This document shows, in pieces, positions 3,201-38,349 of a stretch of 64,000 bases of DNA. Every line of letters begins with the position of its first letter. Positions within the stretch are counted from its first letter, which is position 1. A program made the translations under genes and the position numbers. This DNA comes from Lingula anatina (taxonomy: Eukaryota; Animalia; Brachiopoda). The notes under the pieces are model-generated. The model was not told the origin of the DNA. It did no database searches and was given only the letters and a program-made list of their open reading frames with translations. The DNA is taken from the NCBI GenBank assembly GCA_051362555.1, contig CM120640.1, forward strand, positions 57,700,788 through 57,764,787. Direction: 5' to 3'.

Positions 3201-6200
3201 TGGACGGAAAAAGGTACTGCAAATAAAAATTTTTCCAAGGCCCTAAACTTTACATGGCTTAAGAGACTTCTTTATGAAGAAAATAAGAGTAAGTGGAGAG
3301 CGTTTTTCTTGGCAAAATGTCAGGAATCGGTAGTAACAAAAGGTGGATTAAAAATACTAAAAGCAACTTCTTATCCCTTTTGGCAAACATTATTGGTTCT
3401 TTGAGTGAAATTCAGGAAAATTTCAATTTAACCCCAGATGAAATCTTATCACAACCATTATGTCAAAACTCAAAAATTGAAAAAAATTAAAGAACTATTT
3501 TCCATAAAAGATGGTGTAAAAATGTTTTTGTTTTTTTTTACATCAATGATATTATTAATGACATTTGAACTCCCCTCTGTCTAGAGGAACTCAACAAAAA
3601 ATCAACCTTAACACTAACTTTCTGGGCTAATTCAGCATGTTAAATACTTGTTGCTAGGGTAATATGCTGCCTAGCAACTGTTGCAATGGTTTACTTGTGT
3701 TTTTAATGTCTTAAAATAGTATAGTTATAGTTCTGATGGTTTGAAACATTATTAAAAGCCTTTTTAAATCATTTAAACTGAACAAGAAAGGTCCAATTAG
3801 CTTGTTACTAAGGTAAATCACTTCCTTAGCAACGGTTGCTGAGCAACGCTTTGAAATTTTGGGCACTGCCCTTGAAAATGATCAGCATAGTCCAAAGAAC
3901 ATTTGTGCCAAGTTTCATGCTTTTTCCACCTTTTGAGCAATTTTTGCACCAGTCATCTAGACTATTATATCATACATAATTTTCAAGTGGTCATTGTCTA
4001 ATTATGACACCTTGTGGCTTAGCGCTTACATCATATATAGTTTGTCGAGTTTGTGACTTTTTTCAGAGCAGCAGTACTCCGTGACTAATACTGACCCGTC
4101 GCGTCTACGACGATAACCCATTCATATCTAGATCATTATCAATAATTAAGGACTAAAATAATTCTTTTGATCTATATCTAAATAACTATTTGTAATGTTA
4201 GTTCTGATTTCTATTTTACCCTGATACATTAATCAGTCAAGTTTATTTCACATTATACGTGTTCCTAGTATATGTTTCAGTGTTAGTCCATATTAAATAT
4301 CTGACTTGCCAGTATACCGGTAAAGCGTCTGCCGTGACTTGTCAATGACAAACCTTTCATCATCGAGTTCCAGTAGGGGCAATACGTATTTCATTCATTG
4401 CCAACACCAAGTTTAACTTCAGAATCAACCAAGATGTTCGGGCGGCTGTGTACTGCGCTGCAGTCCGCCATGGAGAGGAGACATGTTGGAATTTCATTTA
4501 TGACCGATATAAAAAAGCAACTGACAACGTCGAAAAGGAATTATTGCTGAATTCTCTGGGTTGTTCAAAGGAACCGTGGATTATAAAAAGGTAATTTGCA
4601 ACATTAACCTTTAGTCGTTTAAAGAGAGTTTTAAAAGCGAAAATTTGAAATTAATCATTAAAACTTTCCATATTTAAATAATCACTTCTCTTGAGACAAT
4701 GCTGTAAATAATCTGTGTTTCGAAAATTGGGTAAGGTTTGTAGGGATTTGTATGATTTGTGACACTTAGCGTAACGGCATATGTGCGATGGGCATCTTTT
4801 CCAGGTTGCTGAAGTACTCTCTAGAGGACGCCAAGATACCGAATAAGGATGCTGTTGCAATTCAGAGTCTTGCTGCTTGTTCCGATAAAGAGGTGGCCTT
4901 AAATTGGTTGATGTCCAATTGGTTTGCTCTTATGGACAGGTAAGAGTTTCCTTTACCAGAGTAAGTGGTTATCAAACTAGATAGCTCAAAATTGAATAAA
5001 AGGTTTTCGAGTGTTTGTTTTATTGGTGTATTTTGATCATCATAATTGATTGTTTACACTTTATACATGTACATGAATGTAATATGCATCGCTTGTAAGC
5101 CATTGCCTGGGTCTTGGAAAAGGACATGTCTGTACACTCCTTAATATTGTCTATCCATAGTTTTCTCTGTCTGCCTCTGTATCTCACACATTAAATTGTG
5201 CTTTGGACCCTTGGAGCATTAATCATTGATCTTGTTATATCTAAGTGACCATTTGATCTTGTTATGTGTAAGTGTCATCGATATTTCTTTTTCTTTACTT
5301 CTGTGAGAAAATCATCATATGGACCAGTGTGTAACTTGATGATATTACGGACCTTGGGCCGTATTCCAAAAAAAAAAAATTAAAATTTTATTTACAACAA
5401 TTTGTTAAGCCCATGTTCAATTTTATTCTATCTTTATATCAGATGGCTAAATCATTACTGTATCATCTCCTTTACCTTAACCTGGATTCATGTCTCAATG
5501 TTTATTGAGAGTATCCTTCAAATGTGACCATTTTAATCGGGATTTTCTTATCTTTCAAAGGTTTGAGCTATGTCATTAACAAAATTGAGTTCATTTAGAT
5601 TTTCTCAAATACTGATGGTACCCATATGGGTCTTCTGTGCTTTGATTCCTTCCAGTAAGATGTCGAAAACATAGGAGATAATATGCTTTCTTGCCGCACA
5701 CCTACAGTTGTCCGAAACATGTCCTACCTATGATGCCTTTGTTAAGGACTGCACTGCATGGTTGGAGTTAAAATTTCGGATGATATAAGCTCCCCACTTA
5801 TATTAAAGAATCTCATAAAAGTGTGGATCGTAAACTACCTCATTACATACCCCGGTGTAACATGAAAATCTGACTCCTCCAGTCAAAATTTCATAATGAA
5901 AATCTGACTCTCCCCATGAAATTTTGACTCCCCCTCACAAAACTTTATAAATCTTATTTATTTGAGTATATGACTTTTTATATTTTAGTATGCATAATGG
6001 AGGATTATTTATTTATAAAAGAAAATTTAAAATGTATTTTTTCCACCCAATGACTCCTATGAAAAGGCTATGGGAGTCCAAATCCTACAGGCAGTAAGAT
6101 GAATACTTGTTTCAAAAATTATCAATTTTCGCCAAAATTTTCCCACCAAAACTTTCTAATACTAACAAAATATAAGTCACAATGCAAACCATGTGGAAAA

Positions 6201-7566
6201 CAATGGTATGGTGATTAAATATAAAATAGGGTCTTTTGTTCATGGGAGTCCAAATCCCATGCGTATGAATATGAAGATTTTTTTTTCATTTTTTTCATTT
6301 TTTGCACTCAATATTTTACAACCAAACTTTCAAATATTTCTAATATATTCTTCATAAAGTGTACCTAAGGGAAAGATGTTGAAATGATCCCCAAATATCA
6401 AATAAACAGCTTTTTCATAGGGGAGTCATTGGGTGGTGAAATACACATTTTTAATTTTAATTTATCATTAAAATTTTCACCTGCAAACTAACAAAGAGTG
6501 CCAATGTTTCCTTCATTATGCATACTACAATATAAAAGTCATATACTCAAATAAAATAAGATTTATATAAAGTTTTGTGGGGGGAGTCAAAATTTCATGG
6601 GGGAGTCACATTTTCATTATGAAAACTTGACTGAGGAGTCACATTTTCATAATAAAAATCTGACTGGGGAGTCACATTTAGGGGGAGTCAGATTTTCATG
6701 GTACGCCTGTAAAAATCTCCATGGTATCTACGTGATAAAGTTATTTTTGTTTTTGAAGTTGTTTCTCGCATAGCATACGTAGATTAAATATTTCTTTTTT
6801 GTGCTTCTGCCTTAGCAGAACCCTGTTTCTGTGCAATGTTCAATTCAGCCTTAAATTAATATTCAAATTACAGCCTGTATAGGATGCTCCCATATATCAT
6901 ACAACTTTTCAAGAACTTCAATTTCATTCTTTCTTTTTGTGCAGATATAGTGAAAACCCTGAGAGTCTCGCCAAGGTTATTCAGAACATTGTTGGAAAAT
7001 TCAACGACGAGTATTCACTAAATAATGTAAATATAATATCTTCTTTTAATATATGCATTATTAATTGTCTTAATTACATGAAATATGTTTGATTTGTATG
7101 TCAACAAGCATTGCCGTAAGAGGAATGTTACTCTTTCTCCTTTCTCTTGGGAGATATCCTTTTGAAATGAGGATTTTTTAAATGAAAGGAAGATGCAAGT
7201 AACAATCATTATACAACCAATATATTATTTAAAGTGTTCATTCTATGAGGTTGTTGAGTTTGATCACACTACAGTAGACTGATGACCGATAAGTATACAA
7301 AATTGTATCTGATATCATTACCATGAATCCACCGCGAATTCCCCTTAATGGCTCTTTCAAATAAAAAATAATAAATTGAGAGAGTTAAGAGAAAAAAATT
7401 GCATTATTGCCATGGTAATATCTATTCTAGCTAGAAGACATACTCTCCAGTTACCCTGAACTTGGTGTTGGCAAGAAGTCGTTTCAAAAAGGGATGCAAC
7501 TAGTAGCTTCTAATGTCGACTGGATGAACAGAAACGCTGAGGACCTATACCAGTGGCTGAAATCAG
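252..7566 (+). CDS. Module 1: ERAP1-like C-terminal domain of an M1 (aminopeptidase N-like) unit; its catalytic domain lies upstream of the window
   Basis: Exons 252-394 ([21 protein letters not shown]), 719-774 ([13 protein letters not shown]), 1212-1365, 1571-1644, 1838-1957, 4423-4590 (VYCAAVRHG...LGCSKEPW), 4805-4939, 6945-7026 and the start of 7431 ([16 protein letters not shown]). These are typical aminopeptidase N C-terminal motifs. Confidence 0.9.
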
Positions 7567-10500
7567 AAACATCTGATCTCGGTAGAAAAATGTGCGGCGC
7601 ATATGTTGATATTCCATCTGGTTCGGGTGATTATACAGGAGGGTCCGGGTCTTATAACACAGGTGTTGTGGTAACACCCACAACACCAGCCCCTGTGGCT
7701 GTTACCACAACCACAAGGACAACATCTACTACCACCCGGCCTACCACAAGGCCTACCACTACGCCCAGGCCTACCACTAGACCTACAACTACCATTAAGC
7801 CTACCACTACCACTAAGCCTACCACTACCACCAAACCTACCACTAGACCAACTACAACGACAAAGAGGTCTACACGTGCTACAACTACAGCCGGTTCTCA
7901 AGGCACCTCCGGTATTCAGACAACACCCATTAGGGGAGACCAAGGGCAAACGGGTTTTACTGGTCCAGGCACAACTGAATTTCCTAAACCAATAATTTTA
8001 CCAGACGAACCGCAAATACAGGACGGCCAGGGAAGGGAATACATGATCATGTTCCCAGAGAATATGCTTCTTGACAATAATAATCAAAATAATCCTTCAC
8101 AAGAAATATTTGTATCAATGGTCAACAACGAATTGGATACATCTGTCATTCATATCGCCAATATGGAAGGCAATAACGTAGTAAACAATTCCATCGTTAT
8201 CAGACGAGGTGAAGTAAAGAAAATTGATATGACTGACCGCAATCTGGAAGTTATGGGGACCTCTGTAAGCAGAAAGGGTATCCAAATTACGTCTCCTGTA
8301 GATATCACAGTCATTGTGGTTAACAAGGACACGTTTACAACTGACGGTTACCTGGCGCTTCCAACAGATGCTCTAAGTACAGTATATTTCACAGCAAGCT
8401 TCCCGCCAAATCCGGAAGAACAGTCGTCTGTATCAGAGTTCGGCATTGCAGTGCCCTATAACTTTACAACAGTAACCATCAAGCTTCCAGACGTGCCTAA
8501 CTTGAATGTAACTCTTAATGATAAAGTTTACACAGGTGGCAATTTCATTCAAATTCAGCTCCATCAATTCGACACTCTCCAAGTTCAGAGTCTGTTCGAC
8601 TTGACTGGAACTTACATTTATTCAGATAAGCCTGTGGCTGTCTTCAGCGGTAATGGCCGAGCTGCCATACCTGGAGATCGCGCGTCACGTGATCACCTTG
8701 TGCAACAGTTGCCACCTGTTCAAACTTGGGGACAAGAATTTGCAACTGTCCCAGTTCCAAGACGCACTGTCGGGGATTACTTTAGATTCATTGCGAGCGA
8801 GCCAGACACGACCATTAACGTATTGAGCAGCAATGGTTCCTCCTTCCTCTATAATATTCCAAATGCTGGAGGTTCTGTCGGAGATATCCACAATTTCAAA
8901 TCCACAGACTTGTACAGAATTATGTCAAATAAACCCATCTTGGTCCTGCAGTTTGTTACAAGCCAAACAACGGCTAGTTCTCCAGAACAAGCGGACCCAT
9001 CTATGGCAATCATACCGCCGGTTACTCAGTACAGTCGAGATTATCGCTTTGCCCTGCCTAAATCAGCGAGTGCACTCACTGGAGCAGGCACCCCATATAC
9101 ACACATGGTTATGCTTATAATCAATGAGGCACTTAGAGGTGGCCTTACACTTGACGGACAACCAATTGTTCTCCCCGATGGAGAGACCTGGCGCCGCGTG
9201 CCGAATGCTCCTGCTGTGAGCCACCCATATAACAATTTGGTTGGTTCTTATATTGTTGTAACTGACGAAAACATTGTGCACAGCCTTACCCATATCAATC
9301 CAGGTGTTAACTTCATGGCTATCATGTACGGAGCAGGAGACAGAGAGTCTTATGCCACGCCAATGGGAATGAACCTAGACTTCATCAATGCCGATCTGGT
9401 AAGTTTTGCTTTAAATCCATCTAGAATGAACATTTAGTCCCTTTTTATTGTAGGTGATATCCAAAAAGAGCATTATGTCTAGAAGCAACTGTTATAATTA
9501 AAGAGAATACGATTTGTTCAAGGTCGTTGATAATTGGAAACTTGATTGTCGTCTTTTTATCATTTGGATGATTTAATTTTAGCCTCAACCGACAGATATT
9601 GAGAGAATTGACGCAGCTGGTCGAGAATATGTTATTATGTATACAGAAAACATGTTACTGGACAACTATCATCCACACAATCCCATACAAGACCTTTTCA
9701 TCGTCGCCGCAAACAATCAAGATGCTGGCGTACAGGTCTCGTACTATCTTGATAACAACCTTCAGATCCAATCATACAATTTATCAGCCAATCAGGTAAT
9801 TCAGGTTGACTTATCCGGCAAGGGTCTTGAAATGACAGGAACCACAATTCAAAGAAAAGCCATTTGTATCTCATCCACCAGTGACATTACCGTATACGGT
9901 ATGAACAAGGATACTTTCACAACCGATGGTTTTATGGCAATTCCAACAGATGCCATTGGTACTAATTACTACACAGTGAACTACCCGCCATACCCAGAAG
10001 AGACTGCATCTAAGGCTGAGGTGGGAATAGCTTCCGCCTTTGACAACACAAATATAACTATCACTCTACCAAGGCTGGATACCATACGCAGTGGGGTATA
10101 CCTGAATGGGGAGACGTATATTGGTGGAAACCGCATCAATGTCGTATTGAACAAGTACGATGCTCTTCAACTCACGAGCACTGACGACCTAACAGGAACA
10201 CACATCCAGAGCACTAAACCAGTTGCAGTATACAGTGGGAACGGAAGGACCGCTATTCCAAAGACTCGTGCCTCTCGCGATTATATAGTGGAACAACTGC
10301 CGCCGGTCTCTACATGGGGAAGAGAGTATGCAACAGTACCAATTCCTAAGCGTACCGTTGGTGATTACTTCAGATTTGTTGCCAGCGAACCCGACACAAA
10401 CATAAATGTCTATGGCAGCGATGGCTCTATATTTTCGTATAACATTAATGCGGCGGGTGGAAACGTGGATGATATTATCAATTTTAAATCAGGGGTTTAC

Positions 10501-13500
10501 TACCGAATCGCAGCTGATAAACCGATCCTCGTTGTCCAGTTTGTCACAAGCCAGTTAGAGGCTAACAGTAATGAGATGGCGGACCCTGCTATGGTATTTA
10601 TCCCTCCTGTCCCTCAATATAGTAATGATTACAGCTTCTTACTGCCAAGATCCGCAGGAGAGGGCGGGGCGGGCACTCCATTCCGACACTTCGTCATGGT
10701 GGTTGTCCACGACACACAAAAAGACGGTCTTCTTCTTGACAAACAACCTCTGCAGCTGCCACAAGGAGAAACCTGGCATGCGATACCAAATAACCCAACA
10801 ACTAACAACTCCGAGTATAATGACCTGGTGGGTGCCTTCTTCGAGGTCACGAATGTGACTGTGTCTCATATGTTTGAGCACACTGAGAGTTCGGTCAAGT
10901 TCATGGCTATAATGTATGGAGCAGGTGACCGAGAAAGTTATGCTTTGCCCATGGGTTTGAATCTGAAGGTTTTGAATGCATACGCGGTAAGTTTGTTTAA
11001 GTATCATTTGTCATCACATTGAAATTTTTATTAGAAAACAAACATTTATAAAAAAAGTGCCTAATGTTATAAAAAAAGTACATCTATGCGTTTAAAGACG
11101 CGTTGTATATTAAAATATACTAATGTCCTGGAGTAATACTGTTTGTTCAAATAAATTTACTTACTTATTACTTATTTATTTCAGGGTACGTCAAATTGAA
11201 GTTTCGCAAAATATCAGGTTTAATGAGAATATGAAGCTGAAGTGTACATGCAACTTGCAAAAACAAGTCACTAACAGTAGAATAATCCATTTGTTTACTT
11301 TTATTTCTACAAAAAATGAAAATTATAAGTATTTGGAAATATACACATGTGAGACTTTAGTAGAGACTAACAATCGTGGTATAAGTTGTCTGAGTGGCTA
11401 CCATGTTTAAACCATCGTTTGTTTTTTGGTCAATTTCTACAGCAATCTATGATTTTGTGTAATGTTGAGCGACAGAAAAGAACGGATTATCTGCACGTGA
11501 AACTGTAGTTTATAGATGAACTCCTCATAGATTCCACATGGATATTTCCCACCTTTCCTGCGTAGAAGTAGGTGGCATCGCCTCGCATGGACAATTGACT
11601 TCGGAAAACATGACATTCTGCCACTGAGCGACGTTCTTCTGCGTTTTATTTTAACCTGTTTGATTATGAAAATAACGTTTAAGCATGACTAGCATATTAT
11701 ACAATGCTATTTTATGTACAATGTAGATAACATGATAAGGGTATTAACAAACGTGTCTTCTGTTGTCATTTTCTTTTCCCCATCACTACCCAATACAAAG
11801 TTGATTTCATGTGTTCAATTGCAGTCTACAAACTAGGGTGTATCGAATTTTAGGCGCCATAAATTGGGGGAGGGATATTACATAAAACTACAGTGTAACA
11901 ACGACACCAGCACGTCAAACTTGCCTGCATGTCTACCTAACACATCTTTGGTTAGAGCGGCTTGCATGTGCATCCTATTACTAACCCAACTTATTATTAC
12001 ATTGCTAAAACAGATTGTGGTATTTTCTAGACTATGTTTGGTAAAGAAACAACGCTTGGGGTTGCTTGTGTTATAATGGTATTCGGCTCACCTGCAGTCC
12101 ACCAACGACACAAATCAAAGGGAAATATGATGATAAAATATTACTATAAAAAATGAGAATAGATGGCTTTGTGGCCAACCGTTTAAGGCACAAGTAATTA
12201 TGCATTGCTTCTGTAGTTCAATTCACATTATATATAATACAGATAATTTCCTGGCGCTTTAACCAGCGACTAACAACTTTTACTTATTTTCTTAAAATAT
12301 GCATAGTTTTAATAATTGTTTATCAATGTATGCTTTTCAATTATTCATAACATCCTTTTTAACCTTTATGCAGAAGGAAACTGGCAGGGCTCTACTTCTG
12401 GACAAGTAGGCATCACCGACCCTGACCTTTCATCCGGATCACAAACTTTCGGTCATTCGACAGAAACAATTACCACTAGTGCATCTACGACTGGGGGAAC
12501 TGCTTTACCAACTGCTTCACGAACTGTAGCATCAACTGCTTTACCTACTGTAGCGCAAACTACCACATCTACCGTAGCGCAAACTAAGGCACCTACTGTA
12601 GTGCAAACTACCACATCTACCGTAGCGCAAACTAAGGCACCTACTGTAGCGCAAACTACCGCACCTACTGTGACGCGAACCAGTACACCTACAGTAGCAC
12701 AAACTATTGCACCTACTGTCGCACAAACTGACGCACCTTCTGCTGCCCCTACTGTAGCACAAACGATTGCACCTACTGTCGCACAAACTGACGCACCTTC
12801 TGTTGCCCCTACTGTAGCACAAACGATTGCACCTACTGTCGCACAAACTGACGCACCTTCTGTTGCCCCTATTGTAGCACAAACGGTAGCACCACCTGTT
12901 GCACAAACTGACGCACCAACTATTGCTCCTACTGTAGCACAAACGGTTTCACCTACTGTTTCACAGACAAACGCGCCTACTGAAACTCAAACAGAAGCAT
13001 CTACTAAGGAACCTGTTGTATCACAAACTATTTCGCCCACTGTTAGTCCTACTGCCCCACAGACAACGGTGGAACCAGTGCAAACTACCACTGAGACACC
13101 ACAGCAACCAGTATTTCCGGGTGGAACAGGACCTAAACAGACAACAAACGTTGATGCAAAAACAACAAGTGCACCAACTGTCGCGCCTACTGTTGCACCA
13201 ACCACTGCACCTACTGTTGCTCCTACCACAAGACAGACGACAGCTGCACAAGTGCAAATCACCACTGAAACTCCACAACAACCAGTATTTCCTGGCGGAA
13301 CGGGCCCTGGACAAACAACAAGGCTACAAGAAAAGACAACAGGTGCACCAACTGCGGCGCCTTCTACCCAAACAACTGCCCCACCTGCTACAAGTAAAAC
13401 AACTACAGAAACTCTGTTTCAACCAACAACATCCACTGTAGAAACAGCGACTGTACTTAATACAGCCTCTACCGAAACTTCTACAGTGCCTACGGTGCCA

Positions 13501-16500
13501 ACTCAAGCATCGACTGCAGCACCAACTGTGGCGCCGACTGCAGCACCAACAACTCTGGCACCATCGGTGGCACCATCTACTGCACCGAGTACAGCACCAA
13601 CCCCTGCACCGACTACAGCTCCTACGACAACAGAAACCACTACCAGACAGACCACAACAGAGATTCCTTTTACATTCCCTGGTGGAACAGGACCTAGGCA
13701 GACAACTAGTAAGGTTGTAAGTCAGTCGACCGGTCAGCAACAAGAAACCACCACTGAATCTGGTGCCTCTGGACCTCTAATCACCGCATTATCTACTACG
13801 CCGCCCACGGCAGCATCTACTGTAGGACAGACAACTAGTCAAAGTAGGGGTACCACTACTGAAACTGCTTCTCTTGGAACATATACTTCATCTGCCCCTA
13901 TCGTCCAATCTACTGCTGCGCCTGCTCCAGCACCTACTGTTGGACCAACTCCAGGTCAACAACAGGACACGTCAACTGGCACCAGTGCAGCTGAGGTAAT
14001 CACTACTGTTGCAACGGCTGTGGCACAAACAACAGGCTCTGCTCTGAATCCCACCATGTTGGCACAGACGGTAGCACCTACTGAGGGTCAAACAACAACC
14101 CAATTCATCATTTCATCAAAACCATTCATTCCTGGAGTTGCTCAAGATCAAAATCGATTGCAGTACGATATAATCCCAAGGAATTACAAGATCGAATTAT
14201 GGCCTAATCCTTTACCCAGCGATTCAACGAACTTCCAGTTCTTTGGTAGAGTTGAGATCATGGTTTACGCCAATGGCCCTACTGATAAGATTATACTCCA
14301 TATGGTAGACCTTATCCCAGATAATAACTCAATTGCTATAGAAGGGCCCACAGGTTCAATACAGCATAATGGATATGATCGCGATCTTGAAAGAGAGTTC
14401 TTTATCCTTAAATTGGCCCAGCCTCTAGTAGATGGGAAAACCTATGTAATAAAAATAAATTATATGGGCGATATTAACCAAGAACCAAGAGGATTGTTCT
14501 TTATCGAACGTACGACACCATCAGGGGAAAAGAGGTGAGTTTATCCCTGCGTAAAGTAGCATTTTATTCGAGGCATATCTCAGAAGTAAATTTTTGTAAG
14601 GACATCTTGACATTAATTCAAAATATAATATCGTCTAAAAATTATAAAAATAACTCTGAATAATGTGGCTCCAATCAGTCTTTTTCCTTCCTAGGTACAC
14701 GTTCACAACGCAAATGGTACCAACACACGCGCGTCGTGTCTTCCCCAGTTTTGATGAACCACTTTTAACAGCAACATTTAACATATGCATCGTCCACAAT
14801 CCTAACTATATATCACTTTCAAACATGCCTAAAGAAAGAACAGAACAAAGGTGAGATGCTTGTTAGTTCAACTGAAGTTTGCTTAAGTTTGAAGTTTGCT
14901 ACCAGACGCTGCGCCTGTACCAGATTGAAGCTATGTGGAAACAACGTTTAATTGAGAATTATTGTCTCTATATGACCATGTTTAAATTATTTATTCTTTT
15001 TGGATATCGTCAAAATATTATGACGGATAACATTTTGAAAGATATTGACTTAATGGCAGTCAGTGAAAAGTGAAAGTTCGTGTGTTTTGACCATCTACCC
15101 AGAAATGCATTACTTCAACACCATATCGGTTATAAATGTTACATTATGTTAGTTATCTTTATTGATTTTGACAGACCAAACAACATGATTGCTGACATAT
15201 TCCAACAAACTCCAGAAATGTCCACCCAACAAGTCACGTTCATTATGACCGATTTACAACCAAAGTCCACCGCCACAGGGGATAATGTCACTGTAAGTCA
15301 TGTATTTTGAAACAAATTTAATTACATTGGGACAATACACACACAGTTAACGTACAAGTCTTATAAATGTTTTGGTCTGAACTTTTATCGTGTAACTAAA
15401 ATTCGTTTTAGTAGTATATAATGGGTGATGATTTAATGTTTTTATTACATAGTTTCAACTTTCAGACTGTGCTAAGATACGACATTTGATAACCATGTTA
15501 GTCTTTGGTGATTTTGATATTCATCGTGATAACCTTCATTGATTATTTAACCTGATTTTAGGTAACGACTTGGACCAGTCAGGAGACCAATAATCAGGGC
15601 ACTTTGGCACGGAACACGGCAGTCCAGACTATTGAATTCTTTACAAACCAATTAAATATGTCTTTCAATGCTCAAAAGCTAGGTTCGTGTGTGTTGCGAA
15701 ATAATTTTATAATACAAAAAGAAAGCGTTAAAGCCTTTAAAGTAAAAGAAAATGAAAGTGGTAAGAAAATGTAAATGTTAACATTTTACACTTATCATTT
15801 TAGTATCATCCATGTTTGTGACCAAGACTTTTAATTGTGAAGTCCATTATTAAGAATATGAGACTTGAGGGGAAAGCACCTTAAACTATGATAAATATGT
15901 CTTAACCGTATGAAGAAAGCCGTATTAAAACATTTGCTGTACTTCTATATAGATATTGTGGCATCGCCAAGCCCGGTTATAAGCTCTGGAACCATTGGAA
16001 TTGTCAACTTTAGAGATGAGCAGATTTTGTATGACTCAAATTCAGCCGATGAAACAAAACGACAAACAGTTACTAAAAATGTCGTCAGGGAAATCACTGA
16101 TACTGTGAGTAAAATTTCATCAATTTAAGTTTCCAATGATTTCTTTTTTTAATTTTACTTTTGATAATCAAACCGGTAAAACATTATAATTATAATACCC
16201 CTTCAGCACAGTCATGGTTTGTTTTCAATCAGGGTATGTCTTTTTAGACTGATGTTTCCATTATTTCAGATATTTGGCAATCTGGTAGGCCCAGGATGGT
16301 GGACTGACATATGGTTCAACGATGGTTTTTCAAAGTTCTGTGCAATTGAAGGAGTGGGTGGCGTGGCACCAGAGTTAGATCCGGTAAGAACCCTTTTACT
16401 AAAACAATTTGGTACCCCAACTCGTTTGACACAATTTTGCTTTAAACTTAAAAGTAAAAACAAACATCTGTTTAGCTACAACAGGCACATGTACCTTATA

Positions 16501-19500
16501 TGAATCCTTATTGGTGAATACATTTACAATAAACATACGTACACGCTCTTTTATTTCAGACACAGCAGTTTGTCTACGACGTAATGTTACCAGTAATGCG
16601 GGAAGATGCCAGCAATGCCACACATCCAATAATAACTGATGTCAGCCAGCCGGACGAGATCGCAGAGAAGTATACAAGTAGCGAATTTACAACGGACAAG
16701 GTATATACCATGCAACTATGATTTGAAATATGTTTATCTTTAAGATCTCGTCATAAGGTAGTATTGTGGAGCTTTGTATATATTGATTTCACAGTACCAC
16801 TGTACGAATATACGGAAGGCCCCTACTTCATTCATCAATACCAGTAAGACCCTGCAAAAGTCATAGCTTTTCAATTCTCGTTGGTTTTCGTTTGAATTGA
16901 GAATCTGAATTTATATTCCAGGCAGCAACTGTAATCAGAATGCTTCAATTCATTATGACCGACCCGTTCTTTAAACGAGGTCTGCAGGTGAGTGTTTGTT
17001 GGAAAACAGAGATTAATGATGGCGTGATGAAAACAAATGGCGATGAAGGATAGTTTCATGCTAGCTGAATAATCACAATTAAATCAACTTTTACATGGCT
17101 ACCAGAGAGTCATGAAAAATTTATGGATAGTTGATTAATTTTGCATATTTTTACAAGGAATATTTTAAGAAAAAAGAAGTCGTTGGAAACACTACAACTA
17201 AAGACGTGTATGATGCCTTCCAGTCTGTAAGTATTTGTAACTTGTCGAGTGTCGGTTCATGGTTCTGTTTTCGTTTCTGAGTCCCTTACATTTATGAATT
17301 CTAGAGCGGTAATTGCCTGTAAGTTTAAGCTGTTGAGAATGTTGTGCTACAAAAACGGTTAATGACATATTTCTGTGTGTTAAAGGAAAATTAATAGAAA
17401 TTAAGTAATTATTTTGACCGTCAATATGCCATTAATCTTAAATTCAGTTCAAGAAAAAAAACATGTTGCAACTTAGAATTTCTAACCGTGAAGTTAATTC
17501 TAAATATAGGTGTTGATTCGGTACCAGAATGTTGATCTCAATATCTCAGAAATAATGGATCCTTGGACCAAACAAGCAGGATATCCATTAGTGACCATAA
17601 CGCGCTCCGGAGATAATTCAGATATCCAAGTCACGCAAGAACAGTTCAAAAACGACCCCACTGCTATCAATAACCCCGAGTATAACACTGTGTACAAGTG
17701 AGGGTTTTGATGTTATTTTTTAAGCACCACGTCATATTGTTATAGTTGTGTGATGTTGAAAAAAGTTCTGTATAGAAAGTGATATGATCGCCGAAAGTAA
17801 CCAATATACAATATGTAAAAAGCAATGGTTAGGATAATGATAAGTACGTGCTGTAGGCTTACAAGTGCTACACTGTAAGTTTTTCTCTCACAAAACAATA
17901 ACAGATGGGAGAAAGGGATGTTACAATGCTAATTCTGCATTTTTTTTACCTCAGTTACACGTGGCATATACCGCTCACAGTGGTAACCAGCAAGGATTCC
18001 GATTTCAAAGGACGCCCAATTCACTGGATGAACTTAGAGAATAGTAAGTAAACCTGAACAGTCATCCACCCAGGTGTTCACTCAATAACAAAGTAAAGAC
18101 AAACCATTGGAAAACGAAGACTGTTTCAAAATTGTCATCGGAAAGTTGACCAAACATGGATTATAAAGCGATAAGTGTTTTTATTCCTGAAGGATGTTGT
18201 CACAATATTAAACTCTCAGACATACTTTTTCAAAACTTAATTGCTCCTTTTTTAATGAAAAATTAATTCAGTTAATGGAAGTGAAATATAACTGAGTTGT
18301 TCGGTGTTTTCTCCTCCAGTCAGCCTACAACCGTCAGATGTTGACAATGTGGGACCCCAAGACTGGGTGATTGGTAATCCGGAGTTAACTGGACTATATC
18401 GAGTCAACTACGATATAGACAACTGGCAAAACATCATCAAGCAGTTAATAACGGATCACAAGGTGAGGAACTACTGCGTTATATGGCGCAATTACCGGTA
18501 TATTTTGTTCTGATATTTATGTGGCACAGATTGAAAGCATCTCTATATAATGCACTTACCAGGGCTCCGTATCTCGAAAGGTTTGCTATGTTGCGCACGT
18601 GCGTTAGTGTCTCGATTCCATAACCGATTCTATTTCGAGATACGGGGCCACGGAATCGAGACATTTGCTCACGTGAGCCCAGTATTACCTAGCCATGGAT
18701 ATCCGACACTACATATACATATTATTCTGTCATTAGGTAATTGGTGACATCAACAGAGCGCAGGTTATTGACGATTTGTTCAGCCTAGCCAGGTGAGTAG
18801 TTAATTTGCCCTATTACTCCTAGACCCTGACGTTTAATTTGCCCTGTAACTCCTAGACGCTAACAACAATAACTTTATGTCTCCTTGATCTAACCCAGCG
18901 GGCACTCAACGTTGATTCAACATTGAGGATAGGTTGAGATGATGTTGATCCATCAATATTGATAGATCAACAAGATCTCAACATTGAATCAACCTTTTCT
19001 TGTCAACCAATTGTCAATGTTGATAGATCAACAGGGTCTCAACATTGATTTAACCTTTCTTTGTCAATCAATTTTCAATGTTGATAGATCAACAGGATTT
19101 CAACATTGTATCAACCTTTTCTTGTCAACCAATTGCCAATGTTGATAGATCAACAGGGTCTCAACATTGATTTTACCTTTCTTTGTCAATCAGTTTTCAA
19201 TGTTGATAGATCAACAGGATTTCAACGTTGAATCAACCTGTGTTTGTAAACCCTTTGTCAATGTTGACATATCAACAGGATCTCAACATTGGGCCAACCT
19301 TAACTTTATAACCTTAATCATAACCTTGATAATAGTTTTAAATGATTATCTCACTAGAGAGGTATGCATAGGGGTAATTACCCCTCATAAAACGCTTGTT
19401 TTACCCCTTTTTCATTAAAATTAATTTTGTGAAAAAAGCGGTCGTCAGTTTTTTTTTTAAACTTTCCACAGGTTATCTTTAAGAAAAAGAAAAAAACATA

Positions 19501-21106
19501 GGGTCACCAGCCTTACTTTATGGCAAATTGACAAAATTTTACTCAAGGTTGAAGAAAAAGCTTGAAAAAGCCAAAAATGCCTGTTTTTCTGGAAATTTAA
19601 GTTAGCTGTGAGAAAAAAATTAGACTGGTGACCCTTTGTTTTTGTATTCTTAAAATTATCTTAACTACCTGATGTGACGTTATAATTATTTTAGTAAAGC
19701 TAATTTGTTGTTTAATTTTTATGAGTAATTACCGTATGTGCCTGCATACTTGTATCAAAGTTGATTCAACCTTGATGGTTCAATGTTGAGTCAACTTTCA
19801 TAGTCAACGTCATATCAACATAGTTTCAACGTTGACCGTCAACGTTGATTCAACATTGATACCTCAAGGTTGATTCAACCTTGATGGTTCAACGTTGAGT
19901 CAACTTTCATAGTCAACGTCATATCAACATAGTTTCAACGTTGACCATCAACGTTGATTCAACATTGATTCAATGTTGATTTGCCCACTGGGAAGCTGAT
20001 GTAAGAAATAGGATCCGTCCTTTAAAGAATGGAACAAACTCAAGTGTGATGTTTGAAATTTGGCCGATGATGGCCGCTTTTATTGGAAGTCCCATTAATA
20101 AAAGAAATAAAGCTTATTATTAATAAACATTGAATTATGAGTCTGATACGTTACATGCAGCATTGAATCCGAGGCTAAAGCAAAATGTTGAGAAATTGTG
20201 TAGCATCGAATCCGAGGCTACAAGCAAATTTGTGAAGTATTAGACCGTCGCCATAAATAAACGTTTGACTACGCCAAACTTCCCTTGAAATCAGACTTTT
20301 GGGGATATCATTTCACCTCAGCATTATGTAAGGCGAATTTCAGTTGAGTTTAAAATGGATTCAGTACATGAATGGATTTTCTGTAACGGTAGTTTTGTCA
20401 GCTAAATCAAAAAAATAAATCTCAGTAAAATAAGCCGCATTTTTACTGAATGGACCCTTTTCAGCGCTAACATCGATCCGGTGACTGTCCCTCTCGCGAT
20501 GAACGCCACCAAGTATCTGGCAAGAGAGGAGGAGTATCTTCCTACTGTCACTGCCGTTTCTAACCTCAGATATTTAGATAACAGGCTGAGAAGAAGTCCG
20601 TATTACGGTGGATATAAAGTAGGTCAATTAACTGTTTTCAAATCTTTAATAATTGGATTACTGTTATTCATACCAGAGTTTAAAGTTAATTTCTGTCTTT
20701 TACCATGCACACGGTTTAATACATAGATTATTGTACAATGTATGCTATCATAAAACGATGAAAACATAACTTTTCTCCTGTTCATTATGCTGTTTATATA
20801 ACTGTATTAAAAAATCACAAAAATAAAATATTTTAGAACTGAAAGAATTTTAGGTAAATGTATCAGATATTCACGATTATGTCAGTATTTTATGTATTAA
20901 TGTCCTGTAGACAGAATCATTCATGCTGTCATCTATTTCTCTTTTTTATATAGCAATATCTGCTAAGTCTAATGTCAAGGTCATATAGTCGATATGGATG
21001 GCAGGACACCGGTTCTCCTATGACGAAGTAAGACATTTGAAAACCAATTCGTTATTTTCATATATTGTGTTACTTTTATAATAATAATAAGGAAATTTGA
21101 ATTATA

Positions 21107-21179
<73 letters not shown>

Positions 21180-24100
21180 AAGGGAGAGAGAGAGTGAGTG
21201 AATGAGTGAGTGATACCGGTACATACATGTACGTTCGCAACTGACTGCATGACGTTGCGGTCTCAACCTGATATTTTTAACTAGGTAATAACCTGGATGG
21301 ACTGGTCACCTGATCTATTGTCATACAGCTGGAAATAGGTTGAGACCGCAACGACGGTTATTTACTTACATAAGTTCCAGTATCAGAGTTATACAAAGTT
21401 ATACCTTCTAATTTTACCGGATAACTGAAATCATTCGCTCAGTAAAGGCCTTTAAATACTGTGTCAAAAATAGATACCCCTACAATAAATTGTTCTGATT
21501 AATAAACTTATGCCATATGTTTAAAAACTATTTTAACTACCATTTTATCATGGTTCTCAACTCTTCGAAAGGTTAACAAGGTCCAGGGTGCTGGAGTACG
21601 CCTGTGAGCTAGGCCACCAGCCGTGCGTTGACAAGTCTCTGGAAAAATTCCGTAAATGGATGAATAATCCAAATGCAGAGAACCCGTAAGTTTATTCTGA
21701 TTGCACAGTGAACAGGAAAAAAAGTCTTTGTGTTATATTTTGCTGGCGCGAGCACGCGTATTGTTAGAGTTAAGTGACGAAAATTCATTATTACATTTTG
21801 CGACATTCCCATGCAATGCGTTCACTTTTCTGATCTCTGACTGTTGTACATATAATGATTGTTCATTAGGATGTTAATTGAAACGACATGAAAAGTAATC
21901 ATTATATTTCAGTATTGAGCCCAACTTTCGGTCTGTGGTATATACGACTGCAGTAGCGAATGGAGACAAGGCCACTTGGGACTTCGTGTACCAACAGTAC
22001 CTGGACGCCACATCCCCGTCAGAGAAACAGCAGCTCCTGAGAGCGCTGGGGTCTTCCTCACAGTCCTGGATTATCAACACGTAGGATGAATTCTGATACA
22101 CATTGATACACAATTATAAATATTGTGGTTGTATAATGTTCAGCAAATATGAAAAAATGATGCAGTTTATAAAAGATACTATTCAGCTACTTTCTTAAAA
22201 GATGATGAAGCCAGATCGTTCTTTTTTACATTAAATAGTTCATATTTAACATCATTTTACACTTCAGAGCTCTGAGGTATGCGTTGGACTCTACAAAAAT
22301 CCCGTATGAAGACGCCGGATACCTGATAATTTTTATTGCCGATACCCCAGTTGGACAAACCATTGCCTGGAACTGGTTGCAAACTAACTGGCACGATATC
22401 CTTAAACGGTAATAAAACAAATCTTCAGACATGGTATTGGGGCCGTTTAATTTATACGCCTGCTTATTTATTTTCAATAGAGTTATTCTTAAACATTGTT
22501 ATCTTACCCATCTTCCTCTGTGTCTATGCAATTGTATATATACTAGCATTCCATTGCCTTTTTCATAATATATGTGTTTAGTGTTTATTTCATGGAAAAT
22601 AATTTATCCTCTTTAATTGCGTCTGTCATTGTAGTAATTTCTTCGATAGCACGTCACTCTTACACGATTTGCTTGGTTTTAAGATTCAGAAATAATCCAG
22701 AAATGATGAGGAAAATCATCTATCAAGTCACAAAGAACTTCAATAGTCTTTCCCAGTTGCAAGAGGTATGTTTCAAAGATTGCGATAATTTTTAAGATAA
22801 AAACAACAACACGACGGAGTGCCGTTTCCCATTATAAGTGTATCTGTCTTTTTAAATCTACAATATTTTTTGTATGTTATTAAACGCCAATATTAATATC
22901 TAGACTGAGAATTGATTTTGAGGTCAAAACCTTATTCAGATGGCAGAATTTTCTTTTTCGGCTAATACCATAAGAGGCATTGTGTCCACCACGCTGTTTT
23001 CTCTCATCCTTAGCTAACGTCTTGGTTGAGCGAACACAATCACAATATGGGTGCAGCGAGGCTTGAATGGCTGAAAGCTGTGGAGAGGACGAAGTCAAAC
23101 ATACGCTGGCTGCTTCGTAACGAGGAAGATATCGGCAACTGGTTGGCCGAGGAATTATTCAACCCGACAACCCCTGGTTTGTACGAACGTAGCCATGTGC
23201 ACGAAAGCCCGGTCGGCACTATTAGTGAGCTACGTCTGCCCTATGACGTCAATCCCACGTCATACGCCATTACCCTTAGGCCAGATATATACGGGAACTC
23301 CCCAGATCAGTTTACCTTCACTGGCGAAGTTGAAATGATATTCGATGCTATTAGGACAACAAATCAACTCACTTTACATGCAACTGACTTGATGGTTGAT
23401 GAAGGTACCATAGAGTTTACGGGCCCAAATGGTAACATTCCTGTAACAACTACAGAATTTATTCCCAAAAAAGACTTCTTTATCGTTAAAGTCGGGACAG
23501 TGTTGGAGCCTAACAACAGCTACTCTGTCAAAATGTCATTTAGTGGCGCTATAGGGCGTTTGCCGTATGGCATGTTCTACACCAGCTACGACTTCCCAGA
23601 TGGCAGCAAAAGGTAGCCATAACATTGTTATCCGCAATTTCTAAAAGTCTCTGTTTGAAATGTAAACTACATATAATTGTTTTACATCTCGTTTGTTACA
23701 CTTTCATGTAAATTTTTCTGAATAATTTTTGTTAATCCATTTGAAATGATTTTTTGCAATCGCAACAGTCAGGAAGCGTTCATTAAACTTTTTTTTTTCA
23801 TTTTTCCAGATACATTATCTTGACCAACATGGCCCCAACACATGCTCGTCGTGTCTTTCCTTGTCTTGACGAACCAGCTTTGAAGGCATTTTTTAACCTT
23901 ACCATCTACACTAAACAACCAATGCTGACTCAGATGTCAACTGACATCAAATTAGTCACAAGCAGGTAATACACAGTATTACACAGTATTATGATAGGGA
24001 GCTCAGTTATAACCGTGTAAAGTTAATTGGATTTCATTGCACTGCATTTAGCTTCTTCACTTTTGGAAATCATTATCATAAACCATTTAATACGGGCGAA

Positions 24101-27100
24101 TAATTTCGTGTGGGTGTGTCATAGCACAAAATTAAACAGTCGTCTCATCGTTCGAATGATATTTCATACACTGTACTTATTTCAGCGAGTCCGACGACTG
24201 GATAATTGAAGTATTTGAGCCAACGAAAAGACTTGCTCCCTCAGAATTGGCATTTGCTATTAATGATTTCAAGCCAAACACGAAGAATACTGGTCTAAAC
24301 ATACCGGTAAGTTTCGGTGCCTGTTTGGATAGTTAAATATTAATATAGTCCGTATGCTGTTCAAAGGACAAACTATTGACGTAATGAATTATGAGAAAAT
24401 AGTCGTGGCTAACAAACAGAGGAATATGTCAATCATTTGAGAATTATGCAGGTATGTGGTCTTGTTTCTCAGGTGACTGTCTGGGCCAGAGACGGCTTGC
24501 AAGGTCATACCGAGTTTGCTCTCAATGGAGCAGTCAGGACTGTAGAGATGTTATCTTCCTACTTTAACGTGCTGTACCCGATGCAAAAACTTGGTAAGAT
24601 CATTCGATATTGAACTTGTAAGATTCAGCAGTTTTGTTTCCTTTCTTTCCTTTTTCTAAGATAGGTCAAAATTTAACTTTCCAGGGCAGAACTTTTAAAA
24701 CGCAACGGAGTGTCTTTCGTATATTGACCTCAACTGACCTGTGGGAATTAGCAAATGATATCCAAATAACACCCATACCGATTGGTGTTATTCTGAAAAT
24801 AAATAGACTAAAATTAATATTAAATTAACCCGACATTAATCAGTGGCTTAAAATATCACAAACCCTGTTGTTTCAGATCTCATAGCGTCGCCAGTGGCTG
24901 GTCTGGATATGATGAGCAGTGGAGGGGTACCATGCATAAGTGAAAGTGACATCTTGCTAGACCCATCCAGCTCTGATGTTCGCACAAAATATAACATTGC
25001 CAAAAGGGTCATTAACAAAATTACGCTGGTGGTAAGGTTTTCGTCGGCTGAATTGGATCTGTGGTTTTATGTTACCATGTGTATACATAGTCCGTGTATT
25101 CTTTTTGTAAAAGCTTATGCTCTTCTTTTCTCACAAAATTCATCATCATAGTGAGAAGGAGCGAAACTCACAGTTTCTTGTACATGTTGTATTTGGCCGT
25201 GAATTCACGGGCGTTGTTTTATATGCTCGCTTCAGAATTTAGCAATTTCACATCTAAGGAAAAGGGAGTATTTGCAATTCAAATAACCTACCATGACATC
25301 TTGAAAGATTCACTGTTTTTTTTTTTTTTATTATTCCAGTGGTTTGGTATGTACGTAACGCCCGCCTGGTGGGATGAGTTGTGGGTGAATGCTGCAATAG
25401 CAAGATTCCTGGAAAGCGTCATGCTGCAATACATGGATCCAGATTGGAACGCTGTATGATTGATTTGAAAAATACAAATAAATGTTTAATACAACAATTC
25501 GGAATTCCTTCGAAAGTGTAATTGGCGCATGTATATAGACTGTGCAAGTTTGCCAAAATTTTACTAAGTTTAATTAATTTTAATTAACTTTAATTAATTT
25601 TATTTTAAATGTAAAAATCATGTCCCGTATATTCTACCTGCATGCTTATTTAATTATATTTCGATTGGTTTCTTTTCGTTTTTAGCTGGAGTTGTTTATT
25701 GACGAAGGAATGACAAAGGCGTTGGAGATAGATTCTCTCAACACTACGCATGCGCTGAACCTAGCGATCAACCACCCTGAACTGATTGCGGAAAACTACG
25801 ACACTATTACCTTGGACAAAGTATGTATTCTACATTTGTATCGGCTGTATAAGAGATTTAAAGTTGCATAATGATGACATATATCAGTTAAAATATCGCT
25901 AATACAGCTTTATCACGTGAATCTGAGACCGAAACGAAGGTTTACTGACTTTTCATTATTTCTTACATTTTGTTGATGGTAGTTGGTGGAAATGTTTTGA
26001 AGCTAAGTAAAATAAACACAAATAAGTATTATTTAAGCGAATAAAAAGTGTTTTGCCTGTTTCTTTTCGCCTTTACCAGGGAGCAGCTGTCATCCGTATG
26101 CTGGCAATGCTGATAGGAGAGGACACCTTTAGGCGAGGAATAACGGTATGCTTTTTAAGGGCAATATCAGTAAAATTTGTATTTTAAAACTTAACTAAGT
26201 CGTTGATTACAAAACGGTAGCTTACAGTGTTTCGTTTCTTATTTTTAACCGCTGAATAAACTGCTGGACACGATTTGATTTTAAACACCTCCTGTTGTGT
26301 TATATATATACGTTGATTGTATCTTGACATTGTAACCCGGATGGTTACTTAATTCTGAGCGGGTAGCAAACTTGAAAACACCGAAGACATCAATGGTAGC
26401 TCATGAAGATCTTTATTTTCTGACGGGCTACAATCTGGCACGCAGGCAGGGACAGTCACGACGATCTCCCGGGGTCTCCCTCTCACTAACTGAGAAGCCC
26501 TCATTTTATAGGGAATCGTTCTAAGTCCTGCGTGCCCAATAACTATTACTAAATGTGTGTAATTTATAGGAATAATAAAGGAACTAAAGGTAACATACGT
26601 GATTAATAGGAAGTATGAGAAAACTAAATACAGGGACTATATTACATTCCATAGTAGCCCTGAACACGGATATGTTCTCCGGGTAGGAAGGTTACATAAC
26701 GCTCGGACCTGGGAATGGCCTCAACTGGAATTTCCCCAGGTGTAGTGACTGTTTTTGGTGGAAGAGATCAAAAGAGCGAAATGACTATAATGAGGCCAAA
26801 GTATTTCTACAATTCTAGAGTCGGCACCGGGTTTCCATTTTCTGTCATCTGAAAGGGGTGTATCTTCAATTACTTAAATAAATTACTCTACTGAGATTTT
26901 TGTTTCTAATTTTGGTTTCTCTTCCGTGATTGAAAATGTGATTTAAAGGCAGAGACAAATTGTATAACACTACCGTGTTATATGACCTTCCGTCCGCGAG
27001 AAGTTTGGCCTCCGGCCAAAACAAAAACACTAGAAAACACTTAAAAACTATAAGTAAAGAAACACAACAAAAGTGGTTAAGTTGATAACAGTTGGAGATT

Positions 27101-36100: not shown

Positions 36101-38318
36101 CATTCGAATTAGGAACATGAGTCTTTGGTGCATGGGTGGGCTACATTAGTGTGACTTGGGGTGTGGCCGTCCCTAGGGGGTGGAGTGATTAGTGGTTTGT
36201 CAGGCAATGAAGCTGATTCCATAGATTGCACTTAAGATTCCTTGCAGAGTTGGACCGACCCAGCTAGTACTACATCCTATGTGTGAATCTGAGGGCGGTC
36301 TTCGAGTTAGGAAGGAAGGGGAAATGTAGAGAAAGCAACAGACAGTACTAAATAACAGACCTTCAGTCGTATTCTTGAATATAGGTCAAGTTAATTAAAA
36401 CCCATTCAAGACCCCATACTCTCAGGAATCCCAGGGTCCAAGTCCCATTGTTCTTTAACATAAAACACACATGTTAATTACTGCTCTTGGGAAATAAACA
36501 TTTTAGTTTTGTGTTAAGACACAACAGCAGTTAAACGCTAGGATTCCTGATCGAGTGTGTGGGGCCTTGTATTAGTTTTTAATTGGATTTCCTGACCTAT
36601 ATTTATGCATATGGCTGGAAGTCCATTTAGTTCTGTATGTGCTTCTCCTGTTCTCTACATTGCTCAAGGACCCATGCACATTCATTAAAATGACAGGTTC
36701 ATTATGTTCCTTAAAATTTAAGGGTATAGATGGCAGAAAAAAGTTGTGAAAAATATAATCAACCACCCCCCGGGATAGCCACACCTGAAATATCATACTA
36801 ACATTCCCGGAAACCTATGCATATCCTCAATGGTAAGCTTATCAGCCCGGAAGGTTTCATGTTCCCAACTGTATTGGCGTAAGGGTAGAAGCACGAATAA
36901 CGATGTAAAATTTAAAATCAACCTCCACAGGGACGGCCACACTCAATGTCACAAAAACCCAGAAGGACCCATACACATCCCCAAAGACAGATTTTTCAAT
37001 CCCCATAGCCTTACGTTCCCAGTTTTATTGGTCTAAGGATAGATATAGCAGGAATAATAATGGAAATTAGACTAAACCGCCCCCAGGACCCCCCCCCCAA
37101 AAAAAAAAAAAAAATCCGAAGTGCCCTTTCACATTCAAAATAGAATGTAGCCACGTTTCATGCTCCTAGCATAAAATACTATGTAAAAATTAGAATAGAC
37201 AACCCCCAGGGTCGACCACGCCCCAAGTCACAATTGAATTCCGAAGAGCCTTTGCAAATCCCTATAATGATAGGTTTATTAATCATCATTACTATGATGG
37301 TTTAGGAAATAACAATGTGAAATAGATCATGTATATAATAAATTGTCCACCACAGGGAAAGCTTGACCAATGTAAGCGTACCTAGCCGAGACAACCCCGT
37401 CCCCATTCCAATTCTACCTCTATAGAACTTCTCACTAGCTATTTATTGACTAAGAAAAAATTTTGGTTGCAAAATGCGTTCCGGTTGAAAAATTCGTTTT
37501 CACGATTTTCTTTGGTTGCAAAATGCCTTGCAGTTGCAAAATGCGGCTCTACACCAGTTTTATGAATCCCCAGCATTTCATTCTCCCCAACATCTATCTG
37601 GACAGTTGACCGTTTCAAATCATTCAGATTTCAGACTTTCCGACCTAAGCGTTTTCATTAAGTATATAGGCCAGGAGGTCAATCTTTTAAAACGACCGAG
37701 ATATTTTCGAAACATATTTGTTGCATATCAATAGAAAAGCCTATTTTTACAGCTTGTTATTGCAAGTCATAACATTTATGTCATAGTTACAAAAGAGATA
37801 CTTCTATAACACGAATAATGGAATAGACGGTTTGTTAAAGATATTAATGTACACCTAGTGTGGAGCAAAATTAAAACCTCTCTGCCTAGTAGAGTTCTCT
37901 ACCTACAGTGGAAAGACATACATTCTTGCTACTGTGTACTAGCCACATCTATAAACCTGCGCCGTCAATCAAACCACACATGGTCAGTTTTATGCCCTAG
38001 TTTAAAGGCAGGCAATGTGTTTATTTATACACTTCGTTTGTCTTATACATCTAGTGCCTCAGACCCGCCATGATTCAACGTCCAAATATTGTCAGTTTTT
38101 AAACGTCCTGAAATCTTAAAAATTTCAAAACTAAATGGGTAAAACAAAAAACTAGCTTTATGCTTTCCGCCACTGGACCGGAGCTCTTGAAAGAAAGTAC
38201 ATTATTTATAGAAGTTAATCTCACGGGTATCTACGAGAACATATGAAAATAACAGCTTCATTAAACTCCAACGAGATAAAATACGCACTATCATGTGAGG
38301 GAGTAATGTTACTCCCCC

Positions 38319-38349
<31 letters not shown>

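Follow-up and report, generated by a model that had tools for sequence, protein, structure and literature searches.

What an aminopeptidase fold may be kept for once it can no longer cut is the question raised by a locus of the brachiopod Lingula anatina. The locus lies in a stretch of 64,000 nucleotides (the window; positions 57,700,788 to 57,764,787 of contig CM120640.1, assembly GCA_051362555.1), an intron-rich region of ~36% G+C whose forward strand encodes three successive modules (modules 1 to 3) related to aminopeptidase N (APN) and other M1 peptidases. A first-pass annotation, made from the letters alone, had described module 2 as a pseudo-peptidase in which all catalytic motifs are replaced while the fold is kept. 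Our analysis supports this description in most respects and extends it to module 3, whose inactivity had been overlooked; both appear to be real, selected pseudo-peptidase modules rather than parts of a decaying pseudogene.

State of the active sites in modules 2 and 3

Module 2 covers positions 57–973 of the 977 in the M1 profile hidden Markov model (HMM; E=7.7e-241), and Pfam recognizes Peptidase_M1_N and Peptidase_M1 on single exons. The flanking structural motifs that had been called intact are present in our splice model, and YRVNYD and other framework motifs occur in module 2. The AlphaFold model of its domain I exon (140 aa, predicted local distance difference test score of 85.6) matches domain I of APN, a comparison of domain I only, with a Foldseek E of about 7e-9 and template modeling scores of 0.76–0.80.

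The catalytic roles of HExxH(18)E, GxMEN, the distal Tyr and related M1 residues are described in the available portions of PMC6222927 and PMC3244404, and the former portion reports that Tyr-to-Phe by itself abolishes activity in members of the family. The motif replacements listed by the first-pass annotation are all found in module 2 (Table 1). HELAH reads REITD, on an exon that aligns without gaps to IRAP with REI opposite HEL, and WLNEGFA reads WFNDGFS, on an exon that aligns without gaps to ERAP2. The GAMENWG region is ISSGTIG, one residue shorter; its register is ambiguous, and no register restores GxMEN. At the Tyr position of ISYxKG the sequence is FTTDK, and the Tyr column is Thr in whichever register. 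What does not stand is the word "all" when it is applied to residues instead of motifs: the HExxH codons are AGG at 16087 (H>R), GAA at 16090 (Glu) and GAT at 16099 (H>D), so that the general-base Glu is retained. The third-ligand site is Asp, at the preserved 18-residue spacing from the second His site, and the module 2 pocket combines three carboxylates (the kept Glu, Asp for His and Asp for Glu) with an Arg at the first His. The amine-anchor column, Q/E in 40 of the 50 homologous modules, is Val in module 2 and Ala in module 3. Because two of the three Zn ligands are non-conservatively replaced and the amine-binding residues and the Tyr are gone, the residues of module 2 support the view that it does not work as a canonical Zn aminopeptidase. 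Neither a frameshift nor mis-splicing explains the odd motifs, given the gap-free alignments on either side of the intron. No alternative exon supplying HExxH was found in the window with five active catalytic regions as tblastn queries, the matches listed at meaningful E-values being module 2 and 3 exons only, and none of the six HExxH strings in the six frames of the window lies in an M1 context.

Module 3 has NKITL at the HExxH site (25014–25028), with the general-base Glu replaced by Lys; its third ligand is Ala (25391, within WVNAA), its Tyr site is Leu (25812, within ITLDK) and GxMEN is absent (from 24906). With Asn, Lys, Leu, Ala and Leu as its five core residues, module 3 is, by its predicted sequence, likewise dead as an M1 peptidase, and the picture of one dead helper with an active downstream partner falls for this reason. 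The two dead pockets are also unlike each other, the core residues of modules 2 and 3 being R/N, E/K, D/L, D/A and T/L.

Loss of conserved residues outside the active site

To place these changes we used an alignment of 52 full modules, comprising modules 2 and 3 and 50 modules from the best 150 of 840 HMMER hits, taken from proteins of at least 700 aa in which the profile was covered from position 110 or earlier to position 840 or later, partial modules being excluded. A column counted as conserved when 80% or more of the 46 zinc-motif modules agreed, which gave 113 columns, 9 catalytic and 104 other; because "active" is defined by the zinc motif, four of the nine catalytic columns are conserved by construction. 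Module 2 keeps 1 of the 9 catalytic columns vs 80 of the 104 others (Fisher p=1.5e-4), and module 3 keeps 1 of 9 vs 79 of 104.

The same pattern is seen by domain. Measured against the active reference P0040 (a cluster with a Penaeus monodon APN-like protein), identity in domain II is 31% for module 2 and 30% for module 3, whereas three active comparators reach 45–56%. With approximate domain bounds, the corresponding values are 32% and 29% vs 30–38% in domain I, and 36% and 32% vs 31–36% in domains III–IV. As judged from this alignment, the loss of conservation in modules 2 and 3 is confined to catalytic domain II. Within module 2, 13 of the 35 conserved non-catalytic columns around the site are changed, vs 11 of 69 elsewhere. 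Modules 2 and 3 have lost 24 and 25 non-catalytic conserved columns, respectively, and 12 of these losses are shared (p=0.002), which would fit equally a single inactivation before the two modules split or the same relaxation occurring twice. Compared with each other, the two modules are 29% identical in domain II, 34% in domain I and 40% in domains III–IV, again with approximate bounds.

Evidence for selection on the reading frame

The first-pass annotation had called the splice sites intact and the module free of stops, and the gene model agrees: from the stalk to the stop codon, the 39-exon frame (12374..44288; 2,448 codons plus stop) has no internal stop or frameshift, and all 38 predicted introns are GT-AG. 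Over 887 aligned codons, modules 2 and 3 differ at a proportion of 0.78 of silent sites (saturated) and 0.43 of replacement sites, with third positions changed most; this estimate of selection is one between paralogous modules. In module 2, at least 8 of the 15 bases in the five core codons have changed from those of the canonical residues. In neutral simulations of the module 2 frame, stops averaged 5.6 with 0.05 changes per site and 28 with 0.4, against an observed 0. The frame was still open in 10% of 500 runs with 0.02 changes per site and in 0.6% with 0.05; from 0.1 upward no run kept it open. Since at least 8 of 15 core bases have changed with no stops, the active site was lost long ago while the frame persisted, and the stop-free frame despite saturated silent sites between the modules argues for long purifying selection and not decay. 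Together with the losses of the ligands, the Tyr and the amine anchor, the comparison with the neutral runs upholds the earlier proposal that module 2 is non-catalytic and not a decaying pseudogene.

Expression and orthologue searches were both negative within their scope. Eight RNA runs were mapped (6–30% of each run, against window positions 1–18850 or part of them, tissues not given), and no RNA joint was observed at any predicted intron in that region. RNA traces were seen on the IgGFc-binding exons in two runs and at 16355–17612 in one run, the remaining depth lying on intronic repeats. Of 583 candidates in the search of the module 2–module 3 junction exon against proteins of 351–2000 aa, and of 59 candidates at E<=10 for the catalytic-helix exons of modules 2 and 3, none was an orthologue. 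HMMER against 1.84 billion representatives gave the 840 hits mentioned above, and among the best 150 none is closer than general M1 relatives; the Atlas query returned only Peptidase_M1_N clusters under 0.9.

Origin of the modules and comparison with known relatives

All intron phases are common to modules 2 and 3; exon lengths are identical in 11 of 18 cases and differ by multiples of 3 in the others, and between modules 1 and 2 they are equal in 6 of 8. In the FastTree phylogeny of domains III–IV, modules 1–3 form one clade with support of 1.0, and in the full-length tree modules 2 and 3 are sisters. The common intron positions and the single clade show, at the level of gene structure and phylogeny, that modules 1–3 arose by local intragenic tandem duplication.

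The nearest active relatives are P0040 and P0027 (a Tubulanus polymorphus APN-like protein), the nearest on the tree being the nemertean protein, and modules 2 and 3 are 30–34% identical over ~890 aa to the nearest active M1 relatives. They resemble the M1 enzymes APN, ERAP and IRAP (MEROPS M1; PF17900, PF01433, PF11838) in four-domain length, framework motifs and the fold of domain I. Unlike those enzymes, they have no His ligands, no GxMEN and no Tyr, the third ligand is Asp in module 2, and they are fused in tandem on a long mucin-like stalk with no membrane or glycosylphosphatidylinositol (GPI) anchor seen.

Tandem M1 proteins were found in gastropods, bivalves, octopus, starfish and wasps, although some of these database entries may be fused gene predictions. 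As in the Lingula locus, Haliotis XP_067653450, Batillaria KAK7475553, Solemya KAL5020570 and Acanthaster XP_022081852 carry at least two whole units per chain, and the best hits align across the same module-to-module junction. In contrast to modules 2 and 3, 32 of the 35 modules in tandem homologues keep HExxH(18)E, and these modules do not group with those of the window. The three dead modules among the 35 are all from wasps (Prorops XP_066591881, Chelonus XP_034947292 and XP_034944909) and show a similar imbalance, with 3, 1 and 5 of the 9 catalytic columns kept vs 86, 80 and 93 of the 104 others. They differ from modules 2 and 3 in having an independent origin on the tree, in keeping the third-ligand Glu in all three cases and in that each chain retains an intact module. 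The wasp tandem M1 proteins (P0006, P0020 and P0117), in which the first module lacks zinc or catalytic residues and the later ones are intact, are an independent case of this pattern. TAF2, subunit 2 of TFIID, is an M1-fold protein that is not known to have peptidase activity. It shares APN domains according to the part of PMC12047770 available to us, and is compared with modules 2 and 3 here by fold; TAF2 differs in being nuclear, ancient and single copy. M1 non-peptidase homologues also form a MEROPS class, M01.UNW, in the table of PMC4826915. The kind of protein described here, as a tandem M1 chain and as a set of dead M1 modules, is therefore already known. The combination of a mucin stalk, a pair of dead modules and neighboring IgGFc-binding domains was found nowhere else among the searched homologues and the open-access literature.

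Gene model and predicted extracellular setting

The gene was modeled on the forward strand by script, and its splice sites are predictions from sequence and homology, none of them taken from RNA (Table 1). From 12374 onward, the chain would comprise a Thr/Ala/Pro-rich stalk, module 2, module 3 and a polar tail. Modules 2 and 3 belong to one polypeptide independently of the splice guesses, since the boundary between them falls within a single exon. The upstream part, ten exons in an open frame, encodes the C-terminal half of module 1 (HMM positions 627–972, E=1.2e-87), a Thr-rich linker and two IgGFc-binding domains; the catalytic domain of module 1 lies upstream of the window, and only its domains III–IV are readable.

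Table 1. Positions of the modeled gene parts and of the retrotransposon in the window
Feature	Position	Strand	Basis
Module 1, C-terminal half (M1 domains III–IV)	252..7574	+	8 exons and the first part of the 7431 exon; GT-AG
End of module 1, 143-aa Thr/Pro-rich linker and FCGBP_N domain 1	7431..9398	+	PF17517, E=2.8e-55
IgGFc-binding domain 2 exon	9583..10986	+	PF17517, E=3.9e-64; phase matches preceding exon
Junction of IgGFc-binding domain 2 and stalk, phase mismatch	10987..12373	+	Splice-site scores from the window's own introns
Mucin-like stalk, 588 aa	12374..14139	+	Composition; 24/60-nt tandem repeats
Module 2, full-length M1 pseudo-peptidase, domains I–IV, ~900 aa, 20 exons	14140..23158	+	HMM
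Exon with ISSGTIG (from 15979; GxMEN lost) and REITD (16087–16101)	15953..16104	+	Ungapped alignment to IRAP
Third-ligand exon, E>D in WFNDG (Asp codon at 16321)	16270..16383	+	Ungapped alignment to ERAP2
Exon with HPI and lost distal Tyr (FTTDK, 16686–16700)	16560..16700	+	Alignment
Junction exon, module 2 end and module 3 start	23014..23612	+	PDB search matches APN C-terminus and domain I
Module 3, also a full-length M1 pseudo-peptidase	23215..44175	+	HMM, E=8e-226
Short polar C-terminal tail and stop	44176..44288	+	No stretch hydrophobic enough for a membrane/GPI anchor
Gypsy-type long terminal repeat (LTR) retrotransposon	26327..34328	-	gag and pol Pfam hits; in module 3 intron 26146–39595

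How the upstream part joins the stalk depends on the junction region, since the second IgGFc-binding domain ends in phase 0 and the stalk exon is predicted to start in phase 1. The strongest acceptor in the gap, at 11185 (11.9 bits, vs a median of 9.2 for 49 modeled acceptors), runs into a stop four codons later. Candidate linker exons are one of 10 nt at 12031–12040, with a weak donor, or one of 1 nt at 11185; at the latter site a single G is followed by a donor-like GTACGT, and, speculatively, a 1-nt exon there would bring the second IgGFc-binding domain and the stalk in frame. A signal-peptide exon for a separate, stalk-headed gene was looked for in the window and none was found.

The stalk is 28% Thr, 14% Ala and 12% Pro, with 36% Ser plus Thr and no Cys, and the upstream 143-aa linker has 40% Ser plus Thr and 13% Pro. 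No membrane or GPI segment was found from the stalk to the stop, the highest 19-residue hydropathy in the stalk and modules 2 and 3 being 1.31. Modules 2 and 3 carry 9 and 7 N-glycosylation sequons, respectively. Proteins with FCGBP_N are considered secreted and mucus-linked in the accessible text of Lang et al. (PMC4948705). Like FCGBP_N/PTS mucus proteins, the locus has two PF17517 domains and Thr/Pro-rich stretches in or beside the gene; unlike vertebrate FCGBP and gel-forming mucins, it has no VWD, C8 or TIL units and its PF17517 domains are internal. No Pfam match to VWD, C8 or TIL was obtained on the long exons scanned, and the modeled chain consists of M1, PF17517 and Thr-rich parts. 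The best database matches of the IgGFc-binding domains are bivalve and Lingula proteins, and Supplementary Table 19 of PMC4595640, in the portion available, lists two Lingula IgGFc-binding-protein genes that are nearly mantle-specific and not tied to this locus. The fusion itself was not met elsewhere: none of 23 long M1 homologues carries IgGFc_binding, and, in a weak check, none of 76 IgGFc relatives (820–2340 aa) lists Peptidase_M1. In the open-access literature searched, a scope that leaves aside the supplementary figure of all FCGBP_N architectures in PMC4948705, where an M1 fusion could appear, no description of the gene or of an M1–IgGFc fusion was found.

Mobile elements and a neighboring gene

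The Gypsy-type retrotransposon has LTRs at ~26327–26982 and 33673–34328 that are 99.85% identical; because they differ at 1 of 656 bases, the insertion must be very recent. Its frames encode an open gag of 430 aa and a pol of 1,325 aa with protease, reverse transcriptase, RNase H, integrase and chromodomain. The same module 3 intron holds a segment of ~4 kb at 34627–38659 that may be what is left of a DNA transposon; the 127-bp inverted repeats at its ends are 98% alike. Two other intronic elements, at 2017–3943 and 5862–6650, have long terminal inverted repeats of 304 and 146 bp and are repeated elsewhere in the genome, since RNA reads of 90–99% likeness pile up there. A further intronic region, 18933–19991, has 61-bp and 109-bp tandem arrays between inverted ends.

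On the reverse strand, a convergent neighbor gene at 47100–51700 has an Asp in its first predicted helix, an RLWR stretch and a coiled-coil-like tail. We take these traits to recall a voltage-sensor or Hv1-type proton channel, a likeness for which single-exon Pfam and PDB searches gave no support. Part of a coding exon is duplicated there: the 280 bp at 49447–49729 are two near-identical copies (98%) of 47034–47135 and 48423–48598, from either a small rearrangement or an assembly error.

Discussion

We infer, as the first-pass annotation did, a role as a binding or structural unit, and we lean towards the reading that module 2 does not cut but serves as a structural or adhesive bead, within a glycoprotein of mucus or matrix that is predicted to be secreted. 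An APN gene was duplicated in tandem within the locus to give modules 1–3 with the same intron positions, and modules 2 and 3 have lost their active-site residues with frame, splice sites and framework maintained. The restriction of the conservation loss to domain II, and the unlikeness of the two dead pockets, suggest that selection acts on the fold and the outer surfaces rather than on one pocket ligand; this is favored because the pockets are the least alike parts of the two modules (29% vs 34–40%) and the residues that took the catalytic positions are unlike in both charge and size. By analogy with APN structures, the rigid four-domain units may self-associate or bind partners at the end of an extended, presumably O-glycosylated stalk, for example through domain IV, by which APN dimerizes according to the portion of PMC5385526 available, and the product would be extracellular, within a mucus or matrix layer.

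Several observations weigh against this reading. The 36% Ser plus Thr of the stalk is below the 40% that the accessible text of PMC4948705 calls typical of PTS domains, for which more than 5% Pro is the other criterion, the join between the IgGFc-binding exons and the stalk is only a candidate one in which the best acceptor terminates the frame, and no signal peptide was seen, the N-terminus being outside the window or not found. Name searches of PMC4595640, as far as its text and supplement were available, gave no M1 name, the shell-protein tables included. The framework of module 2, at 80 of 104 columns, falls near the bottom of the range for active modules (75–102, median 96). No orthologue was found in the searches described above. 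The observation that counts most against the reading is the lack of any spliced read of this gene in the eight RNA runs, with no control gene in the stretch.

The alternatives differ in what they ask of the pocket. It is rather unlikely, in our view, that the module 2 pocket was repurposed, with Arg and three carboxylates binding a peptide, an anion or a cation of the Ca/Mg type without hydrolysis, as in a receptor or decoy. All of the module 2 replacements are charged, the 18-residue spacing is exact, and active-site mutants of puromycin-sensitive aminopeptidase serve as binding proteins, to go by a title in the reference list of PMC6857582; however, the amino-group holders are lost (the Glu of GxMEN and the Q/E column, here Val), module 3 is without such charges, and it is in domain II that the two modules diverge most. 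That module 2 goes on hydrolyzing, its metal site rebuilt from two Asp and the retained Glu acting as base, is scarcely credible: the catalytic Glu is kept and Asp can ligate metals, as is generally known, but Arg cannot ligate Zn, the Tyr, GxMEN and the amine anchor are all lost together when, in the portion of PMC6222927 cited above, loss of the Tyr hydroxyl alone abolishes activity, and the conserved columns near the site are changed more often (13/35) than those elsewhere (11/69). A larger variant of the structural reading, in which the entire locus encodes a single secreted glycoprotein with more than 3,900 residues whose APN folds would be beads of a mucus or mineralizing matrix with FCGBP_N domains and mucin stalks, the Arg-plus-three-carboxylate site of module 2 holding calcium or phosphate, we consider improbable as a whole.

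Two further explanations concern the gene rather than the pocket. A formerly selected pseudo-enzyme gene that was silenced very recently, with stops not yet accumulated, has in its favor the absence of spliced reads in 8 of 8 RNA runs and the very young LTR element that, with a second element, fills the 13-kb module 3 intron; we hold this to be distinctly unlikely, as 39 exons are without a stop, frameshift or broken splice site, just a tenth of simulated module 2 frames survive 0.02 neutral changes per site, and sampling 6–30% of each run would give the same picture for a tissue-restricted gene. Modules 2 and 3 might instead be regulatory partners in mucus, keeping an active module 1 or other aminopeptidases in place or adjusting their activity, a role that dead units have in other tandem enzymes and for which the three wasp proteins with a dead and an intact module in the same chain are a precedent, and in which module 1 could be the active unit if the locus is one gene. 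It is very unlikely here, since module 1 falls with the dead modules 2 and 3 in the tree, its branch being as long as theirs, its catalytic exons lie outside the window, and ~1,650 residues of IgGFc-binding domains and stalk would separate modules 1 and 2 across a join that is only a candidate.

As a structural or adhesive bead, module 2 would bear on a little-explored part of the family. Dead M1 peptidases are catalogued but barely studied in animals in the literature that we reached, and an automatic pipeline would list two or three active aminopeptidases here. With two whole modules long maintained minus their catalytic machinery in a mucin-like setting, the locus lets one ask what an APN fold can do beyond cutting, in dimerizing, adhesion or ligand capture, and it would stand for a new class only if a ligand or a matrix role were shown.

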